Made by a program: the position numbers and the translations under genes. The notes beneath the pieces were generated by a model. The model made no database searches, was not told the origin of the DNA, and was given only the letters and a program-made list of their open reading frames with translations. Below are positions 52,305 to 63,961 of a DNA stretch of 64,000 bases, one piece after another. The DNA comes from an uncultured Actinomycetota bacterium. Its GTDB lineage: Bacteria > Actinomycetota > Actinomycetes > JAHEKZ01. Numbering within the stretch: the first letter of the stretch is position 1; every line of letters begins with the position of its first letter. Location: positions 768,001-832,000 of the forward strand of contig CAWHIJ010000003.1 of NCBI GenBank assembly GCA_963829525.1. Direction: 5' to 3'.

Positions 52305-52386
52305 GCCCGGATGGCGTAACTGGCAGCCGCTGACCACTTAAAATGGTTTGCCGAAAGGCGTGTGGGTTCGAGTCCCACTCCGGGCA
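52305..52386 (+). tRNA. tRNA-Leu(UAA), bldA/leuX-type; CCA not encoded
   Basis: Acceptor GCCCGGA/TCCGGGC+A, anticodon loop CTTAAAA in a GACCA/TGGTT stem, long variable arm GCC-GAAA-GGC, T-arm GTGGGTTCGAGTCCCAC. Confidence 0.95.
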
Positions 52387-52535
52387 CGTTGCAGAGCCGA
52401 TTTGTCGTTTTCTTGGCCCCGATCGGACATCCGGGCTGTGCTTACACCCGAAATGAGTTACCGTTGTTCTACCGGCCACCGGCCGGAGTACCTGTTGGAC
52501 GACGTCTCGTCTCACGAAAGGGCCGATCAGTCCGG

Positions 52536-55211: not shown

Positions 55212-56579
55212 GTGGAAACTTACGACTCAGTGATCGAGCTCATCGGAAACACCCCGCTCGTGCGCCTGAACAGAGTCACGGAGGGCGCTGGCGCTCCGGT
55301 CTACGCCAAGGTCGAGTACTTCAACCCCGGCGGGTCGGTCAAGGACCGGATCGCGCTTCGGATGGTTGACGCCGCCGAGCGTGAAGGCCTCCTCAAGCCA
55401 GGCGGCACGATCGTCGAACCGACGTCAGGAAACACCGGAGTTGGCTTGGCCCTCGTGGCGCAGCAACGTGGCTACTCCTGTGTCTTTGTTGTCCCCGACA
55501 AGGTGAGTCAGGACAAGATCAATGTGCTCAAGGCGTACGGCGCCGACGTAGTCGTCTGCCCGACGGCAGTGCCACCTGAGCACCCCGACTCGTACTACAA
55601 CGTCAGTGACCGCTTGGCGGGCGAGATCCCTGGTGCATGGAAGCCAGACCAGTACGCGAACCAGAACAACCCCATGTCGCACTACGAGCAGACCGGCCCT
55701 GAGCTGTGGCGGCAGACCGATGGCCGTCTCACCCACTTCGTGGCCGGCGTCGGGACCGGCGGGACGATCACCGGCACTGGGCGCTATCTCAAGGAGGTCT
55801 CCGACGGGCGGGTGCAGATCGTGGGAGCCGACCCCGAGGGGTCGGTCTACTCCGGTGGCACCGGGCGCCCGTACCTCGTCGAAGGCGTTGGTGAGGACTT
55901 CTGGCCGACGACGTATGACCCCGCGCTCGTCGACGAGGTGATTGCGGTGAGCGACGCTGACTCGTTCGCCATGACGCGGCGCCTGGCTCGCGAGGAGGGC
56001 CTGTTGGTTGGCGGCTCGTGCGGCATGGCGGTGGTTGCTGCCGTCGAAGTCGCGCAGCGGCTCACTCCGGACGACATGGTCGTCGTGTTGTTGCCCGACT
56101 CCGGCCGCGGCTACCTGTCGAAAGTCTTCAACGACGAGTGGCTGGCGCAGTACGGGTTCCTGCCCGAGCGGGGCGAGAGCCAGTCGGTCGGCGACGTGCT
56201 CCGCACCAAGGGTGGGGACCTGCCAACCTTCGTGCACACCCACCCGAACGAGACACTGGCCGAGGCGATCGAAATCTTGCGCGAGTTCGGCGTTTCGCAG
56301 ATGCCGGTGGTCCGCGCCGAGCCACCCGTCATGGCAGCAGAGGTCGCCGGTTCGGTGATCGAGCGCGACCTGCTCGATGCCCTCTTCACCGGACGCGCCA
56401 AGCTCTCCGACCGTGTCGAGGACCAGATGTCGCCGGCGCTGCCAAGCGTTGGCGCCGGCGAGCCGGCATCAGCAGCAGTTTCTGCTCTGGAGAAGGCCGA
56501 TGCCGTGGTCGTCCTCGAGGACGGCAAGCCCATCGGCGTGCTCACCCGCCAAGACCTGCTGGGTTTCCTCGCCGCCTGA
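55212..56579 (+). CDS. cbs: Cystathionine beta-synthase (PLP domain plus CBS pair)
   Basis: NPGGSVKDR, EPTSGNTG, GTGGTITG, GVSQMPV, TRQDLL. Confidence 0.96.
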   Translation: METYDSVIELIGNTPLVRLNRVTEGAGAPVYAKVEYFNPGGSVKDRIALRMVDAAEREGLLKPGGTIVEPTSGNTGVGLALVAQQRGYSCVFVVPDKVSQDKINVLKAYGADVVVCPTAVPPEHPDSYYNVSDRLAGEIPGAWKPDQYANQNNPMSHYEQTGPELWRQTDGRLTHFVAGVGTGGTITGTGRYLKEVSDGRVQIVGADPEGSVYSGGTGRPYLVEGVGEDFWPTTYDPALVDEVIAVSDADSFAMTRRLAREEGLLVGGSCGMAVVAAVEVAQRLTPDDMVVVLLPDSGRGYLSKVFNDEWLAQYGFLPERGESQSVGDVLRTKGGDLPTFVHTHPNETLAEAIEILREFGVSQMPVVRAEPPVMAAEVAGSVIERDLLDALFTGRAKLSDRVEDQMSPALPSVGAGEPASAAVSALEKADAVVVLEDGKPIGVLTRQDLLGFLAA

Positions 56580-56598: not shown

Positions 56599-57603
56599 TC
56601 AGTCGCTGGTGTCCGAAGGGCTGGCGTCCGGAATGCGGATCCAGCTGGCCGGCGTCCAGCCGCCCCCGCAGTCGTTCTGGTCCACGGTTCCGCGCAGCAA
56701 GGTTGTTCCGGGATTGGAGTACTCAAGGTTGCCAAGGACGAGGAAGTCTCCCTCTTCGCATTGAGGCGACTCCGTCCTGCTGAAGAGCTCCAGCCCTGAC
56801 CCGCGGAACCTCCAGCGGCCGTTGTCGACCACCTCGGCTGAGTCGTCCGCGACGTAGTAGGTCCCGTCCTTGGCGATCTCCAGAAGGTAGCCGCCTCCTG
56901 CTTCGGCCATCCAGTCTCCCAGGAGGACCTTCTTGTCGGCCACCGGCCGCCAGCCACGTATGTCAGAGCTCGTGAAATCTGCGTAGCGCCCCTTGTCTGG
57001 CAGCACGTGCTCAAGCGTCATCGTTGTCGCCGCCGGGTCGCAGGTGCCGAACAGGGGATCGGAAAGGACAACGTTGACAAGTGAGCTTTCTGGGAGAGCC
57101 GCACGCATGCTGAACTCTGAGCTGACGCAGCGGGGCGCGTCCGTCGTCGTCACCGCGATCGTGTTGCCGTCGATCGAGTAGGTGCCGATCGTGACCGGGT
57201 CGGAGATGACAGTGCCTTGGTCGGAGAACTGCACCGTACCGTTGGGTTGGAACCGCACCATGACCTTTCCGTTGTCGACCCGCCAGAACCCGTTGAGGAG
57301 TTCCGGGGTGGGCGCAGCGCCCTTGAGAAAGTCCTCAAAGACGTCGACGGTCGGACCGGACCCAGCCGGCGTGACTTCCTGGTCCGTTCCGCCGAGCGAC
57401 TGATACGCCCCGATGCCCACGCCCGCGACCACCACGGCTGCGGCGGCCACCAGCGCGACGGTACGACGTCGGTCGCGTCGACGGTTGCTGTCGATGCGAC
57501 CTTTCACTGAGTTGCTGGCATCCAGCAGTTCTGTCTCGGTCACGACGATCCCTTTCGTTACGGCCGCGATGTCCTCTCGCAGCCGTTCTTCGATGCTGCT
57601 CAT
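56599..57603 (-). CDS. Putative anti-sigma membrane protein with two lipocalin-like extracellular repeats
   Basis: MSSIEERLR, RRRDRRR followed by a TM helix; repeats LNGFW...F.PNGT...GTYSIDG...C and LGDW...I.KDGT...GRWRFRG...C; ATGA overlap with the sigma gene. Confidence 0.7.
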   Translation of the reverse strand: MSSIEERLREDIAAVTKGIVVTETELLDASNSVKGRIDSNRRRDRRRTVALVAAAAVVVAGVGIGAYQSLGGTDQEVTPAGSGPTVDVFEDFLKGAAPTPELLNGFWRVDNGKVMVRFQPNGTVQFSDQGTVISDPVTIGTYSIDGNTIAVTTTDAPRCVSSEFSMRAALPESSLVNVVLSDPLFGTCDPAATTMTLEHVLPDKGRYADFTSSDIRGWRPVADKKVLLGDWMAEAGGGYLLEIAKDGTYYVADDSAEVVDNGRWRFRGSGLELFSRTESPQCEEGDFLVLGNLEYSNPGTTLLRGTVDQNDCGGGWTPASWIRIPDASPSDTSD

Positions 57604-58172
57604 CGGGCCTCCTCGATTCGTTCGTGCAGGGTCTGCAGTCCGCGATGGGCATGGGTCTTGACTGACCCCTCGCTGATCCCCAGCAGCTGGGCGGTCTCCG
57701 CGATTGACATCTCCAGGACCAACCGACACGCAAGCACCTCGCGTTGTCGCCGGGGCAAGGTCCGCATCACTGCGACCAGCGATCCGACCCCGTCACGGCT
57801 CACGATCGTGTCTTCGGGGCTTTCGTGCTGCTCTCGAACGAGCATGAGCGGCCGAGAGGCCTTTTGTGTGGCCTGGCGGCGCACCCAGGACCGACAGCGG
57901 TTGAGCACAGCCGAACGGAGATACCTCTCAGCGTCCTCGGCGTCTCGCAGTGATCGCCAGTTGCGGTAGAGGGCAGCGAAGGCCTCCTGCACGGCGTCCT
58001 CAGCGGCTTCGCGACTGCCCACCATGACCACGCCGAGGCGAAGCATCGCGAGGTAGTGCCGACGAAACAGGGCGTCCACCACTTCGCGGCTGTTATCCGC
58101 AGACGCATCGCTGTGTGGACCGGCAGACCAGTCGCCTGCCGAGAGAATGTCCCTCGATGCCTGGTTCGTCAT
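57600..58172 (-). CDS. ECF sigma factor, SigE-like
   Basis: AAEDAVQEAF, YLRSAVLNRCRS, LPRRQREV, GISEGSVKTHAHRGL. Confidence 0.92.
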   Translation of the reverse strand: MTNQASRDILSAGDWSAGPHSDASADNSREVVDALFRRHYLAMLRLGVVMVGSREAAEDAVQEAFAALYRNWRSLRDAEDAERYLRSAVLNRCRSWVRRQATQKASRPLMLVREQHESPEDTIVSRDGVGSLVAVMRTLPRRQREVLACRLVLEMSIAETAQLLGISEGSVKTHAHRGLQTLHERIEEAR

Positions 58173-58178
58173 GCCTGA

Positions 58179-58206
58179 GAGTCGCCCGACCACCCGATGA
58201 GGTTGA
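58179..58206 (-). promoter_or_regulatory. Putative autoregulatory ECF promoter
   Basis: Minus strand TCAACC-N16-CGACTC, 6 nt upstream of the sigma ATG (leaderless-type). Confidence 0.5.
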
Positions 58207-58292
58207 CACATCCGCGTCGAAAGTGTGGTTGTGGGCAGGTCGATCGATACTGTTCAGTCGGCCGCAGCCCTCGACAAGAACTCAGGGGGTCG

Positions 58293-58637
58293 CTACTGCG
58301 GGCCGATCTGGGTTTCGCGGCTCAAGGGCGACGCGCCTTCTGCGCCCTTCAGCTCGACGAAGATGACGTGCGTCGGTGTGTCACCGATGTTCTCTCCGTA
58401 GTGCGTCTGGGAGGGCAGCCAGCCCACCGTGCCCGCTTCGATGTCAACCTCGCGCTGTGTATCTCCCGACGCAAGGCGACGTCTGAACGATGAGAGCGTG
58501 TACATGACGCTGTCCGGATGCCCGTGTGGGGTCGTGCGGTCGCCTGGCTGATCGCGGTACTCGAGCACTCGCACCCGGTCGTTTTCGAAGATCACCGAGT
58601 AGTGGTCCGGATTCGTGGTCGCGGGATCAAGGTCCAT
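58293..58637 (-). CDS. Cupin-domain protein
   Basis: FENDRVRVLEY.D.PG..T.PH.HPD...QTHYGENIG.TPTHVIFVELK. Confidence 0.88.
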   Translation of the reverse strand: MDLDPATTNPDHYSVIFENDRVRVLEYRDQPGDRTTPHGHPDSVMYTLSSFRRRLASGDTQREVDIEAGTVGWLPSQTHYGENIGDTPTHVIFVELKGAEGASPLSRETQIGPQ

Positions 58638-58719
58638 TCGCACAGCGTCTCACTCAGAATCCGATTTGGTAGGCGTTCTTCAAACCACGCCCCATCGGCG
58701 CTGACTCGATGGGCTGAGC

Positions 58720-58776
58720 TCAGGCCACAGGGTATGCCACTCCGGTGTTGGCGTGGTGGTCGTCGCCGTTGAAGAC
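58720..58776 (-). pseudogene. Diverged msrA 3'-end copy 2 (VFNGDDHHANTGVAYPVA*)
   Basis: 58730-58771 matches msrA 61080-61121 at 35/42 nt by manual alignment; same strand, own TGA, followed by a CCCATCG/CGATGGG hairpin. Confidence 0.85.
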
Positions 58777-58793
58777 GCACTAACACCGCCCGA

Positions 58794-59150
58794 TCACGAG
58801 ACTTCCGGCATCGACCCGAAGCGGCGAACCTCCTGGGGCCAGCCGCACGCTCCCGCTAACTTACCGGCCCACATCTTGGCGGCATTGTTGTCGGCAACGT
58901 CCACGATCGTGAGTCCGCCTAGAACCTCTTTGGTCTCGGCGAAAGGTCCATCGGTGACGATCAACGAGCCGCTCGTCGCGTCAGCGCTGAAGACCTCGGC
59001 TTCCTCCTCCAGCCCACCGGCGAACACGTAGACGCCAGCAGCCTTCATCTCGTCCACGACCGCCATAGCGAGCGGCGCGCGCCCACGGAACCACTCCTCG
59101 GTGTGTTCGCCGACCCACTGTTGGTTGAAGTAGATGAGGTACTCGGTCAT
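58794..59150 (-). CDS. YciI/DGPF-family protein
   Basis: AGVYVFAGGL, VTDGPFAETKEVLGG, EVRRF. Confidence 0.9.
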   Translation of the reverse strand: MTEYLIYFNQQWVGEHTEEWFRGRAPLAMAVVDEMKAAGVYVFAGGLEEEAEVFSADATSGSLIVTDGPFAETKEVLGGLTIVDVADNNAAKMWAGKLAGACGWPQEVRRFGSMPEVS

Positions 59151-59199
59151 GAAACTCCTCCTGCCATGGCGAGGCAGGGGAGTCCGCCTCCACCTCCTC

Positions 59200-59226
59200 G
59201 ACGAACGGCGAGTGGCGAATCCGCCA
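59200..59226 (-). promoter_or_regulatory. Putative ECF42-type promoter of the DGPF gene
   Basis: Minus strand TGGCGG-N17-CGTC resembles the TGTCGA...CG(A/T)C promoters known for DGPF genes. Confidence 0.45.
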
Positions 59227-59229
59227 CCA

Positions 59230-59304
59230 TTATGCCGGGAAGTCTACGCCGGTATGGGCGTAGCAGACGTAGCCGTTCGGCACCTTCGCCAAGTGCTGCT
59301 GGTG
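59230..59304 (-). pseudogene. Diverged msrA 3'-end copy 1 ([24 protein letters not shown])
   Basis: 59249-59305 matches msrA 61092-61148 at 46/57 nt by manual alignment; same strand, own TAA. Confidence 0.92.
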
Positions 59305-59349
59305 GCAGAACTCACTGGCGTCTACAAGAAGGGAAGCGACAAGCGGGGC

Positions 59350-59430
59350 CGCGATGAAGACGGATTCGATGATCCTGGCGCCGACGTATGCGATGGCGAG
59401 GTCCTCGTTTTGCCGTCTGACGACCGGGTG
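59350..59430 (-). pseudogene. Internal fragment of a DUF4386-like membrane protein
   Basis: HPVVRRQNEDLAIAYVGARIIESVFIA resembles the PVLRR.NE..A..YV..R..E segment of DUF4386 proteins (recalled, not searched). Confidence 0.55.
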
Positions 59431-59432
59431 GC

Positions 59433-59525
59433 TTGACGCTGGTTCAGGCTTCCGACGAAACCGGCATATCCAAGAGCACGCTGTCGCGATTGGAGAACGG
59501 TCAGCGGCGGCCAACCCTTGAATTA
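59433..59525 (+). pseudogene. Fragment of an XRE-family HTH regulator
   Basis: LTLVQASDETGISKSTLSRLENGQRRPTLEL, classic HTH_3 helices; truncated at both ends. Confidence 0.8.
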
Positions 59526-59750
59526 GGCCGCACTGGTTCGGGCGCACTGGTGCCGGCTCGGTCGAACTGATCAGCATCTTCAGCCGTCCGGGCGAGCAGT
59601 TGAATGTCCAGCGAACCGCGGCAGTTGCCCCCCAAGCCGACTGAGGAGGCGTCGCTTGAACGTGAACGTCGTAGGGTGAGCACGTAGCGCCGACGGAGGT
59701 AGGGCGACCACATGCACCGTCGCGCGACTTCTGAGTCTGGAGACGACTAG

Positions 59751-60740
59751 ATGAAAGCCTGGGTGTACCGCGAGTATGGACCGCCGGAGAACCTCAGCTT
59801 CGAGGATATCGAGAGGTCACCACTAGCCAGCAATGAGATAGCGATCCGGGTGCGAGCCAGCTCCCTGAATGCGGCCGACTGGCACATCATGCTCGCAGAT
59901 CCATTCCTCGCACGCATCGCCGTCGGACTGCGCAAGCCACGGAACCCGATGATCATCGGCTCCGATGTTGCAGGGATCGTCGAGTCCGTCGGCAAAGACA
60001 TCGTGAGATTCGCACCAGGCGACTCGGTCTACGCCGAGACGATGATGATTGGCGGATGCGCAGAAGTCATTGCGGTGCCAGAAGACCGGGTCGGCCATAT
60101 GCCGAGCGGCACTTCGTTCGAGCAGGCCGCGGCCGTCCCGATGGCGGGGGTGACAGCACTCGTTGGAGTTCGTGCAGGAGGCCCGATTTCACCAGGACAA
60201 ACAGTTCTCGTCAATGGTGCATCGGGAGGTGTGGGCACGTTCGCCGTTCAAATCGCACATGCCCTCGGGGGCGAGGTAACAGCGGTCTGTCGTACTGACG
60301 CCGTGGAAATGGTTCGATCGCTCGGAGCCAAGGAGGTCATCGACTACACCGTGGAGGAAGCTGTCGACGCCGGTCGGACCTACGACCTTGTTGTCAACAT
60401 CGGAGGTACACATTCCCTGAAGGCACTGCGAAGGACACTCAACCCCCGCGGCGCCCTGGCCGCCGTCGGTGGTTCTCAGCGTGGTGGTTTGCTCGGACCG
60501 GGCTCGGTCGCGGTGCGCGGCGCGATGCTCTCACCGTTTACTTCGCAACGCCTTGTCAAAGTCGAGGGGAAGGTAACCAGCGCTGACTTGGCGACGCTTG
60601 CCTACATGATCGAGTCGGGTGACGTAACGCCGGTGATCGATCGCATTTTCGCCTGGTCGGAGACCCCCGACGCCATGCGCTACCTGGAGACGGGTCATCC
60701 GAAGGGCAAGATTGTGATCATCGTCGGCACAGGCACCTAG
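59751..60740 (+). CDS. NAD(P)-dependent MDR oxidoreductase (zinc-independent, quinone reductase/alcohol dehydrogenase-like)
   Basis: YGPPE, SLNAADWH, GSDVAG, NGASGGVG, VIDY, GHPKGKIVI. Confidence 0.92.
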   Translation: MKAWVYREYGPPENLSFEDIERSPLASNEIAIRVRASSLNAADWHIMLADPFLARIAVGLRKPRNPMIIGSDVAGIVESVGKDIVRFAPGDSVYAETMMIGGCAEVIAVPEDRVGHMPSGTSFEQAAAVPMAGVTALVGVRAGGPISPGQTVLVNGASGGVGTFAVQIAHALGGEVTAVCRTDAVEMVRSLGAKEVIDYTVEEAVDAGRTYDLVVNIGGTHSLKALRRTLNPRGALAAVGGSQRGGLLGPGSVAVRGAMLSPFTSQRLVKVEGKVTSADLATLAYMIESGDVTPVIDRIFAWSETPDAMRYLETGHPKGKIVIIVGTGT

Positions 60741-61066
60741 TCGCCCAGCCGGCGCGCCACATGGTTGTTCGGGTCGGCGCCGAGAGTCGCCGACGGCAAT
60801 GGCGTCGATGGGCTCGTTAAAGCCGAGACAGTTGGGCTTAGCGCTGAGCATGCTGTTGGAGAGTGGGTGGGTCCACGTCTCGCCAACCGCTAGTTCCAAT
60901 AGGCAGACGACAGGCGCAGCGAGCTGTCATTGCTCGGCTCTTCTCGAAACCAGTCGGGAAGGTATTCGCTGACTTTCTGGGGTACCAAAGAATCGCGTAT
61001 CTGGGCCCTGCGCGAAGGCGGTTGGGAGGGCAGCGAGGCTGCCCTGCGGTTGATCGGTTGGGGCGT

Positions 61067-61711
61067 CTAGTCCCCGGTGGGGTAGGGAACCCCGGTGTTG
61101 GCGTGGCAGTCGTAGCCGTTGGGTACTTTTGCAAGGTACTGCTGGTGGTGTTCTTCGGCGTAGTAGAAGGCGGGGGCCGGCAGCATCTCGGTGGTGATCG
61201 CACCGAGACCGACCTTGGCCAGTGCCTGTTGGTAGACGTCGCGAGAGGCCTCGGCGGCTGCCCGCTGGTCCTCATTCGTCCAGTACAGCGTTGAGCGGTA
61301 CTGAGATCCGAGATCATTGCCCTGACGGAAGCCCTGGGTCGGGTCGTGGGTCTCCCAGAACACCTTGAGGAGCTCTGCGTAGGAGACGACTGCGGGGTCG
61401 TAGACGACGCGGACGGCCTCGGTGTGGCCTGTCATCCCGGTGCAGGTCTCGTCGTAGGTGGGGTTCGGGGTAATGCCGCCTTGGTAGCCGACAGCGGTGG
61501 TGTAGACCCCAGGCATCTGCCAGAAGCGTCGCTCGGCGCCCCAGAAGCACCCCATGCCGAAGAAGGCCTCAGCCATGCCGTCGGGGACCTTGCCGGCGAT
61601 CGGGGTGCCCAGCACCGCGTGCCGCTCTGGCACTGAGAAACCCCTCTCGGATCGGCCCGGGAGGGCCTGCTGGGGGGTGGGTAACGTCGCCGCTGTACGT
61701 CCGAAGATCAC
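61067..61711 (-). CDS. msrA: Peptide-methionine (S)-S-oxide reductase
   Basis: [54 protein letters not shown]. Confidence 0.97.
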
Positions 61712-61739
61712 CTGGTGCTCCTGTCGTTGACCTGTTTGG

Positions 61740-61766
61740 CTCAACCAACACCCCCCGCCTGCCGAT
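61740..61766 (+). promoter_or_regulatory. Putative sigma28/FliA/WhiG-type promoter upstream of chemoreceptor 2
   Basis: CTCA-N17-GCCGAT. Confidence 0.65.
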
Positions 61767-61807
61767 TCCCTCCGAGACAAATCTCTTGGGCGTCACGGAG
61801 GGTAACG

Positions 61808-63961
61808 ATGCGGAGCATGCGCGTGCCTGCGCTGGTGCTCGGCGTCCTCATGCTCTCGTCCGCGGCTGGTCTGGCCTACCAAGCGACGCGGACGGCTAGC
61901 GACTCTGCCAGCGCCCAGAACACCGAGCTGCAGACAGCTGCTGCCAACACCGAGGTGCTCCTCACCGCTCAGTTCGAGCAGGCCGGCGCCATCGGCCTGC
62001 TGACGGCCCAAGATGAGGTGTTCGTCGACTTCTTCAAGGCACCGGGCAGCACGGCAACCAAGGTCGCGACGGACGATCAGTCCCGACAAGGCATCGTCGA
62101 CCTTCTGGCGTACCAGCAGACGCTGTTTCCCGGATCGATCGCGCGCTCCGGCTACGTTGACACGAAGAGCGGCCAAGAGATCGCCGAGGTCGTCAACGGT
62201 TTCCCGTCGCCGCCGATCACCCTGGAGAGTGGCGCCGACAAGAACCTGCCCTTCTTTGCTGACGTTATGTCGTTGCCGACCGGCTGGCTCTACCAGTCGA
62301 GCCCCTACTTCTCGAAGGAAACCAACGAGTGGGTGGTAGCCAACGGCACGACGGTGATGTTCGACCGTGACAAGCGCGGCTTGATGTATTTCGAGATCCG
62401 GCTGGATGCCCTGCGAGGAGAAGTTCTTGCCAGGGACGGAAACGCCACGATGCGTGCGGTCACCGAGCGCACCGGACTTGTCGTGATCGACAGCCGTTCG
62501 ACGCAGGTGTCAGCTACCGACTTCGGTCAGACCGAGGACCAGACCTTCACAGGTGAGATCCGCAGTTTTGGTGCCTCGGGTCTGACGACGATCGGTGACG
62601 AGCGCGTTGCCTACGTGCGCATGGAGCCGTCGGAGACCCTGCAAATCGTCAACGACAACGACTGGTTCATCACGGCGTCGGAGCCTGTGGTCGTGACCGG
62701 GCTGGCCGCAGCTGTATCGCCACTGCTCATCGCCTTGGTCGCCCTTGGGGTCCCCTTGGTCATCTACGCCTTCGTGTCCTACGTGAGGCTCTCAAAGAGA
62801 AAGCGACGGGACGCCCTCGAGACGAGCGCAGAGCGCGACCACCTGAATGCTCGACTCACCGATTTGTCTGAAGCCCTTGACCAAGCGGCCGCGGGCAACC
62901 TCGCGGTCAGCCTGCCGATCGACTTCGACGACGAGCGGCTCGCCGTACTGGCGCATTCGTTCGAGAACACGCTGGGACGCCTGCGGGAGTTGGTCGCTCA
63001 GGCCCAGGGACACGGCGTTCAGCTCGCCCAGGCTGCTAGCCAGATGCGCGCGACCGCACAAGAGCAGGCCGGGTCCGCGGGTGAGCAGTCTGCGGTCGTG
63101 ACGGAGACGACGGCGACGATTGAGGAGTTGGCGGCGACGGCGGCTCAGATTGCTGAGACGGCTGGGTCGGTGGCTCGGGTTGCGGCTGAGACGTTGGCGT
63201 TGACTGATGAGGGTCGGGGTGCGGTGGCTGAGTCGGTTGAGGCGATGGATCAGATTCGGTCGGTGGTGGATCAGATTGGGGTGTCGTCTGCGGGGTTGGG
63301 GGACAAGATCACGCAGGTGGGTCAGATTTTGTCGTTGATTGATGAGTTGTCTGAGCAGACGAATTTGTTGGCGTTGAATGCGGCGATTGAGGCGGCTCGT
63401 GCGGGTGAGCATGGGCGTGGGTTTGCGGTGGTGGCTGCTGAGGTGCGGAAGTTGGCGGAGCGGGCTCAGGAGTCGACGAGCCAGATTCAGGGGATTGTGA
63501 CTGAGATTCAGGCGCATACGCGGTCGACGGTGTTGGCGTCTGAGGAGGGTGCTCGGGCTGCTGAGCGTGGGTCGGGTAAGGCTGCTGGTGCGGTGGTGGC
63601 GTTGGATCGGATTGCGGCGATGGTTGATGAGGCGACCGGTGCTGCTGAGGAGATCAGTATTGCGACGCAGCAGCAGCGGTCGGCGTCTGATCAGGTGGTG
63701 GTCGCGATGACCCAGGTCTCCGAAGTCTCCCGGCAGTACGCGACGGGCTCCAAGCAGACAGCCGCAGCGTCGTCGCAGATCGCGACCCTTGCGGCGGCCA
63801 TGCAGGACTCGATCTCCACATTCCAGGTGGAGGGTTCGGGCGACGTTGTCGGAAACGGGCCCTTCATCGACCAGTACGCCGATGTCGATGCGGGCTCGGA
63901 CCCGGACTACCAAGGTGAAGAAGTGCCCGCTGCCCAGGACGAGGGTGTCTATCGGCTCTAG
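61808..63961 (+). CDS. Methyl-accepting chemotaxis protein, paralogue of 21183..23264
   Basis: Same architecture and identical tip peptide; sensor-domain similarity (YQS.PY.S..TN.WV.A..T; N.N.W..TAS.P.V.TGL). Confidence 0.95.
63077..63700 (+). other. G/T-skewed codon block inside chemoreceptor 2
   Basis: Of 208 codons, about six end in C and none in A by manual count; flanking codons have normal C-rich third positions. Confidence 0.9.

Follow-up and report, generated by a model that had tools for sequence, protein, structure and literature searches.

Displaced msrA gene ends bounding stacked gene cassettes in Actinomycetes point to an attachment site for large serine recombinases

We analyzed a stretch of 64,000 nucleotides (hereafter the window) from an uncultured Actinomycetota bacterium (assembly GCA_963829525.1, contig CAWHIJ010000003.1, positions 768,001 to 832,000; genome G000, 2.96 Mb, 97% complete), in which the gene msrA is followed by accessory genes punctuated by displaced copies of its own 3′ end, referred to hereafter as tails. 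Comparison with relatives reveals a fixed breakpoint at the His-Gln-Gln (HQQ) codons of msrA, conserved arms next to it, genes for large serine recombinases (LSRs) beside such scars, and integrase-less units of the same size that occur in differing order. Judged from these sequence features, the HQQ codons probably act as a bacterial attachment site (attB) for several LSR clades, with small units moved by a ferry-and-drop route and with homologous exchange of tails in addition. The window features at the center of this reading are as follows (attR denoting the putative right-hand attachment site).

61067..61711, minus strand: msrA, intact; probable GTG start at 61711, inferred from family members
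61139..61147, minus strand: His-Gln-Gln codons, crossover core of the attB-like site and start point of intact displaced tails
59305..61147, minus strand: unit 1, 1843 bp, without a recombinase; current msrA tail, scraps, an alcohol dehydrogenase (ADH) gene, gene remnants and arm
59305..59330, minus strand: element-side (P) arm of attR 1, with TTCTTGT 29 nt upstream of the first Gln codon, followed by TTCTGC ahead of the His codon
59230..59304, minus strand: displaced msrA tail 1, host-side half of attR 1 (blastn, identity against shuffles)
58794..59150, minus strand: yciI (YCII domain, Pfam), cargo of unit 2, a unit that is also first behind msrA in genome G005
58720..58771, minus strand: displaced msrA tail 2, decayed, with arm and HQQYLAK codons deleted and the Cys lost (blastn, alignment)

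The msrA product matches PF01625 (PMSR; Pfam, E 7.5e-60) and MsrA structures in the PDB; the gene ends at 61067 on the minus strand, and its replaceable tail comprises the final 26 codons, GYDC cysteine included. Along the same strand the order is msrA, the 1843-bp unit, tail 1, yciI, tail 2, a cupin gene, and an extracytoplasmic function (ECF) sigma factor with a presumed anti-sigma, beyond which lies a convergent cystathionine beta-synthase-type gene (cbs). An earlier note on this DNA had reported two diverged copies of the msrA end, and these are real: tail 1 is identical to it at 52 of 69 nt (best of 100 shuffles, 36/69) and tail 2 at 35 of 42 (shuffle best 24), and a blastn search with the msrA end over the whole 2.96-Mb genome returned the two as sole extra matches below 0.2 (E 6e-9 and 1e-5; next best 0.26). 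The note's count for tail 2 was reproduced, as were the retention of the Cys in tail 1 and its absence from tail 2; for tail 1, measured from the His codon, the likeness stands but the count becomes 45/57 rather than 46/57. Over 23 codons tail 1 differs from msrA by eight synonymous and six non-synonymous changes. Contigs of run X2 span yciI, tail 2 and the cupin gene with zero differences, and tail 2 is also bridged by a contig of run X6 from another study; no contig bridging tail 1 was found among the matches listed (241 further pieces lie outside that list). One X1 contig tracks msrA and then diverges 64 bp past the stop, and in two contigs of the sediment run X5 the msrA end is followed directly by the start of yciI or by the region upstream of the ECF gene (88% likeness, possibly relatives).

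Within the genus, msrA was found in all 14 genomes, and the interval between msrA and cbs ranges, where measurable, from ~45 bp (G003) to 4.5 kb (G000); in G014, from another genus of the same family, the two genes abut. The strain-variable content downstream of msrA that the earlier note anticipated is therefore present, as is the relative it foresaw with an intact msrA directly before yciI: G005 has msrA, then yciI, then a tail, and alignment with it shows that the apparent shortness of window tail 2 results from a ~40-nt deletion at the same site, removing the arm and HQQYLAK. Displaced tails occur in 5/14 congeners (G000, G005, G006, G007, G011), and the five intact ones of the genus all start at the His codon of HQQY; the same fixed start, at the His/Gln codons, holds for intact tails in 14 further genomes. 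A fixed HQQ start behind a ~30-bp arm points to site-specific insertion, hence a site-specific recombinase, and rules against homology-anchored illegitimate recombination, one of the origins that the earlier note had offered. Its other proposals on this point, repeated insertion inside msrA that supplies a replacement 3′ end and exchange of the segment bearing the C-terminal Cys, are supported, with the crossover lying at the HQQ codons, ~8 codons upstream of the NGY.CHA.TGV codons at which it had placed the att site.

The yciI gene lies behind an msrA tail at two further loci (L103, L104) and in G158, and is therefore a frequent msrA neighbor. Window 59190-59228 (minus strand), upstream of yciI, folds strongly (z −3.3) and resembles the region upstream of yciI at L103 and L104, with a common GTTCGT motif, in line with the putative promoter suggested before. 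Cargo genes of the window recur at further loci within the family, and DNA homologous to its zinc-ADH gene sits at other loci in G012 and G018.

The window genome has no match to PF07508 (the LSR Recombinase domain); the single Resolvase-domain gene and the handful of tyrosine recombinases that it does encode lie far away, the PF00589 matches more than 300 kb from the locus. In its congener G006, whose resident msrA tail is unusual in carrying a two-residue insertion, an LSR gene (PF00239 plus PF07508) begins ~30 bp from the displaced tail. The arm motif TT(A/C)TTGT stands 29 nt before the first Gln codon, at equal offset, in G006, window tail 1 and G007 (per-position frequency 3.4e-5), and the two-part motif (TTCTTGT plus TTCTGC) occurs once in the G000 genome. 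At 83 of 94 loci the LSR N-terminus could be recovered, and in seven of these, the G006 contig among them, an msrA tail lies directly upstream; L104 provides an eighth, frameshifted case, and G021, G211, G365 and G055 four more. All 12 recombinase genes found beside a displaced tail are thus LSRs, and no tyrosine recombinase matched beside a displaced tail in the arrays examined. The G021 and G211 enzymes are only 24–27% identical to the G006 type, so that several LSR clades use the msrA site; in a quick tree with long branches the tail-adjacent LSRs cluster (3 changes versus 5.9 shuffled), and a single clade is not shown.

The autonomous elements found at the site differ widely in size and content: a 2.4-kb LSR-plus-cargo unit (L043), a 5.9-kb element with pSAM2-type RepSA and GntR (G021), a 22-kb island (G365), a prophage (L116), and a 9.5-kb element (L112:1-9983) within msrA that encodes an LSR, terminase, portal and capsid, with phage tail genes not seen, and is a candidate capsid-forming phage satellite of actinobacteria by its gene content. 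PF07508 matches occur in 4/20 genomes of the order, and a search of the 19 genomes other than that of G006 gave no close LSR at E 1e-40. Annotated phages contained neither a close LSR (best ~33%, actinophage serine integrases) nor a convincing msrA tail, and scanning viral contigs with a single LSR protein gave no match. The one match from a pattern scan of viral contigs was AT-rich phage sequence and not an msrA tail, and two of three metagenome pattern matches were native msrA genes with Phe before Tyr-His. Separately, an opposite-strand gene end stands behind an element-type msrA tail at L012:1-251 (G006 C284), the left end of an LSR element, where the contig breaks.

To examine the site itself, the circle site of each unit was rebuilt by joining its right arm to the tail at its left. 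In 5/5 LSR elements with both ends, the rebuilt phage-type site (attP) is mirror-symmetric 17–26 nt from its center (5–7 of 10 positions), the center falling on the CA of the His codon in G006 and G021 and on the CA of the first Gln codon in L043, L112 and G365. By this symmetry, a G006-type LSR would most likely center its crossover in the window on the CA of the msrA His codon (61147-61146). Of the integrase-less units, 3/20 score 5 of 10 or more (window unit 1 scores 3; Fisher p 0.001), and 17/20 lack an element-type tail motif on their left; units of this kind are therefore bounded by an attB-like site plus attR, not by attL plus attR, and because they keep host-type tails the msrA site stays attB-like. 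The msrA site thus shows a fixed crossover with short (<50 bp) sites, an LSR gene beside it at 12 loci (none in G000) and partial mirror symmetry of attP, features expected of an LSR attachment site. Sites of the LSR Bxb1 span 38–48 bp, consistent with arms that end near −30 (PMC3642061).

Insertion at this point has consequences for the protein. The mirrored attP motif alters MsrA residues (SPTK, RNI, KNV or KHV replacing KVP/KNP), and the crossover lies within the conserved HQQYL run, after which the GYDC Cys is the only cysteine. Solved MsrA structures have a Cys in the same GY-Cys segment; it is probably the resolving Cys, by analogy with E. coli Cys198 and M. tuberculosis Cys154, and our literature searches found no paper supporting that role for the GYDC Cys. 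Resident msrA tails keep this Cys in 14/14 congeners; displaced tails decay.

The arrangement extends well beyond the family of the window. A C-terminal MsrA profile matched 385/401 Actinomycetes genomes drawn from the class, and all 39 multi-match genomes outside the window family were examined: displaced tails are present in 14; a further 24 were excluded, having second msrA genes, split genes or contig-edge copies only, and G062 was left out of the count. With the five congeners, displaced tails are found in at least 19 of the 385 msrA-bearing genomes, from 10 genera and 7 families, a count that decayed tails under the first cut-off escape and in which five unpublished genomes (G025, G048, G050, G054, G060) enter the denominator only.

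The richest arrays, in a genus labeled g7, hold 4–8 tails within ~25 kb. Their 22 arms represent 12 unrelated unit ends that share TTATTGC...GAA...CTACCAC, with 10–12/12 agreement at key positions and likeness lost beyond ~−30, and the LSR element of G021 carries the same arm. Two PIN units recur at different ranks. One, of 938 bp, takes third place in G021 and first place in G278 (98.4% identity over the body); the other, of 798 bp, heads the array in G162 and comes second in both G380 and G278 (its own left tail is lost in G021). Between G021 (B<A<D) and G380 (D<A<B) the unit order is reversed, so that deletions alone are insufficient to explain it. Other array cargo includes Phd/ParE and, in G021, Shedu and type I restriction-modification domains; elsewhere, integrase-less units range from 248 bp to 8.2 kb. 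An integrase-less unit is first behind msrA in G000, G005, G007, G011, G162, G248, G278 and G380, and the rule that the LSR comes first fits G021. The chronological order proposed in the earlier note finds partial support: identity to the resident tail drops with rank (rho −0.64, p 0.001, n 23), a trend that is not clear against the consensus (rho −0.31, p 0.15).

Related structures also occur away from these arrays. L145 (G380 C1 ~7,948,100) is an arm, tail and cargo unit ~7.2 Mb from msrA in a complete genome, its cargo 94.6% identical to an array unit of G162. L038:415-3300, on a 59% GC, probably proteobacterial metagenome contig, has three msrA tails of another type (YCGIGGCGVPF) with the same His codon start; its units carry 1.2–1.6 kb of integrase-less cargo, longer arms and GAAGTCTACCG-like direct repeats on both sides, presumably akin to tyrosine-integrase arm sites, and no recombinase lies on the contig stretch tested. 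L143:11700-11900 (G062 C213) is an L038-like tail plus arm. The msrA type on this contig is not that of the genome's own msrA, and the contig is possibly mis-binned; the flanks of the tail and arm resemble a split ABC-permease gene.

How might units without a recombinase come to lie first behind msrA? The carriers of LSRs at the msrA attB would be small integrative elements, capsid-encoding satellites and prophages, and each displaced tail would be an attR scar comprising ~30 bp of element arm and the old gene end. In the route we propose, an LSR element would excise together with the unit behind it (attL × distal attR), the composite of element and unit would integrate at msrA of a new host, and the element would later excise alone (attL × first attR); the unit would then stand first in line behind a host-type tail, with attB renewed and the stack able to grow again. 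Since Bxb1-type LSRs are selective, joining attP × attB and, with a directionality factor, attL × attR (PMC3642061), such cis-mobilization followed by solo excision would be the simplest route under their rules, the step itself being inferred. Homologous exchange or conversion among the 75–95-bp tails would also reshape arrays, and G000 would be a two-unit stack whose recombinase has departed.

Several observations weigh against this scheme. The span scored for symmetry was picked post hoc, and related genomes do not count as independent cases; the msrA of G000, compared with its congeners, shows no identity drop after the crossover relative to before; the outer motif is missing from the arms of G005 and G011, and the window arm motif overlaps the reading frame of a DUF4386 remnant. 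Six congeners (G001, G002, G008, G010, G012, G013) have cargo in the interval without any tail, and no degenerate tail was found in the cargo of these or of G018 and G019. No circle junction, and hence none of the circular excised cassettes envisaged in the earlier note, was seen in contigs of four runs (contigs drop rare forms). Between genomes, the tail before the same cassette varies more than the cargo does, with differences of 9/95 in the tail and 13/843 in the cargo for unit B, and of 15/95 and 40/703 for unit A; pure ferry-and-drop would hold tail and cargo together, unlike these data, and homologous exchange or conversion is therefore also at work. New units might arise by over-excision at a downstream pseudo-site, which would account for the capture of msrA neighbors such as yciI.

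The uncoupling of tails from cargo is also what would be expected if LSRs had only seeded the scars and units had since looped out and re-entered by homologous recombination between tails, the arm–tail junction being preserved without an LSR. Tails of 75–95 bp at ~80–95% identity could sustain such exchange, and LSR domains are absent from G000 and present in few genomes of its order; position-specific conservation of the arm over 12 unrelated unit ends, however, implies selection for a binding protein, which homology would not maintain, and we regard this explanation as unlikely. A true analogue of the integron, in which free circles with an attR-type site enter msrA by an LSR acting in trans (attB × attR) and both sites are regenerated, is decidedly unlikely. 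It accommodates the minimal units of 0.25–3 kb first behind msrA and the cargo genes of units B, G005 and G007, which stop ~35–45 bp short of the crossover, and tandem cassettes that lack a recombinase are cut out in every combination by Ccr LSRs (PMC11470126); yet Bxb1-type LSRs are restricted to attP × attB and attL × attR (PMC3642061), the LSRs at the msrA site resemble single phage-type integrases, and circles were not observed in the contigs. The trans-acting recombinase on free cassettes that the earlier note had offered as an option is likewise not the best reading, since the cassettes bear host-type, not attP-type, tails.

A view of the units as decayed relics of large elements, each integrated once and immobile since, we hold to be very unlikely: unit 1 does contain gene scraps, an element-type tail precedes an integrase-less unit in G192 and such tails stand in tandem in G211, but identical-length units stand at different ranks, first included, in 3–4 genomes (contradicting decay for g7 units A, B and D), and the left tails of most units are host-type, not element-type. 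Homology-facilitated illegitimate recombination, chance repeats or mis-assembly, to which the lack of a contig bridging tail 1 among the matches listed might be ascribed, is hardly credible and is refuted as a general explanation by fixed breakpoints, repeats far above shuffles, tail 2 bridged in two studies and a layout found in 10 genera.

We return, then, to LSR-driven ferry-and-drop with tail exchange and to its relation to known systems. Elements that insert into a protein gene, supply it with a new C-terminus and displace the old tail are familiar: e14 and phage 21 in icd and Bxb1 in groEL1 are examples, each a single prophage without a cassette stack. Integrons hold small cassettes, often single genes or toxin–antitoxin modules, in variable order and probably with the newest first. 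Cassettes of fixed extent in variable order are found here too (g7; the yciI unit in G000 and G005); unlike in an integron, there is no adjacent IntI tyrosine recombinase and the borders are LSR att scars. As for attC hairpin sites, the borders between cassettes are msrA tails, and the hairpin that the earlier note placed downstream of tail 2 is no more stable than the folds of shuffled sequences (z −0.27; no attC model used).

By analogy, the msrA stack appears to be tandem accretion of the kind known at rlmH (staphylococcal cassette chromosome, SCC), in cis-mobilizable elements (CIMEs) and in ssrA islands. SCC/SCCmec at the rlmH 3′ end shares LSRs, a housekeeping-gene 3′ end, recombinase-less tandem cassettes and defense cargo (here in G021; PMC11470126). 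It differs in its target and in size, SCC measuring 17–48 kb (PMC11470126) against 0.25–5 kb for our single-gene or toxin–antitoxin units; the msrA site is, moreover, served by single phage-type LSRs of several clades, and ~25–30 codons including the Cys are replaced. CIMEs and microCIMEs of streptococci are likewise integrase-less tandem units at protein-gene 3′ ends, movable only with a functional element (PMC7563491), and, like them, the msrA units have no recombinase or transfer genes and keep att sites. Streptococcal CIMEs lie always farthest from the target gene, with 2–3 elements per array (PMC7563491), whereas msrA units often stand first rather than distal, their arrays reach eight tails, and their left border is attB-like, most of them having no attL plus attR borders of their own. 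The ssrA islands of Dehalococcoides resemble the msrA arrays in their serine recombinase and tandem islands, about half of which lack an integration module, and differ in their tmRNA target, 20-bp repeats, ~12-kb islands and CcrB-like enzyme (PMC3146451).

The closest published entry is LSR cluster943 (PMC10083194, supplement file 3, row 1030), whose predicted attB is the msrA YHQQYL site and whose attP carries a replacement tail; the target gene is given as NA, and the main text, in the portion consulted, contains neither the name msrA nor the word "tandem." By eye, the N-terminus of this LSR resembles that of G021. Our literature searches found no published description of msrA arrays, subscription papers and preprint supplements, which may describe the site, being outside their scope. 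New here are the type of enzyme, the position of the crossover, the taxonomic spread, the finding of minimal cassettes in changed order, and the distinction of host-type from element-type tails.

The remaining features of the window are listed below. The cargo identities given in the earlier note stand (zinc-ADH family, YCII, cupin, ECF sigma). The cupin gene and the ECF/anti-sigma pair, which it listed after tail 2, have no tail behind them and are therefore not shown to be cassettes.

59751..60740, plus strand: zinc-ADH family oxidoreductase, cargo of unit 1 (Pfam ADH_N/ADH_zinc_N)
59433..59528, plus strand: probable helix-turn-helix remnant from six-frame translation, presumably XRE-type (label by eye)
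59329..59430, minus strand: DUF4386 fragment continuing into the arm (Pfam E 0.0035, below cut-off)
58293..58643, minus strand: cupin gene (weak Pfam match, below cut-off), variable in relatives, no further tail bounding it
57600-58211, minus strand: ECF sigma factor (Pfam), variable in relatives, no further tail bounding it
56599-57603, minus strand: presumed anti-sigma (no informative Pfam match), variable in relatives, no further tail bounding it
55212..56579, plus strand: cystathionine beta-synthase-type gene (PALP plus CBS; Pfam), conserved distal anchor of the variable region

The window also holds a methyl-accepting chemotaxis protein gene (MCPsignal, HAMP; 61715-63961, plus strand), divergent from msrA, and a tRNA-Leu(TAA) gene (52305-52387, plus strand). 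In six congeners a 45–50-bp palindrome centered on CTATAG lies just past the msrA stop or before cbs (L024:2667-2716; equivalents in G001, G002, G004, G010 and G013); G000 has three similar copies, none of them at msrA. At L035 (G010 C12 29600-30250) and L104, msrA, ECF or LSR genes carry several frameshifts, which are probably long-read errors and were not read as pseudogenes.

A broader picture, which we put forward tentatively, is that msrA may anchor a self-renewing, integron-like gene-capture system of Actinomycetes run by visiting LSRs, in which single-gene and toxin–antitoxin cassettes are actively collected and reordered, attB is restored in each round, and the binding motifs of the recombinases rewrite residues beside the C-terminal Cys, so that mobile DNA tunes MsrA. 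The analysis names a widespread accessory-gene hotspot in Actinomycetes along with the enzymes that serve it. Because host-type and element-type tails can be told apart by sequence, the locus lends itself to asking how serine integrases, despite their strong directionality, are still able to assemble long tandem arrays. Integration tools for actinomycetes could draw on the several LSR clades whose predicted att sites fall on a single conserved run of codons, and DNA-binding constraints appear to be written into the C-terminal segment of MsrA, where their effects on catalysis are testable.

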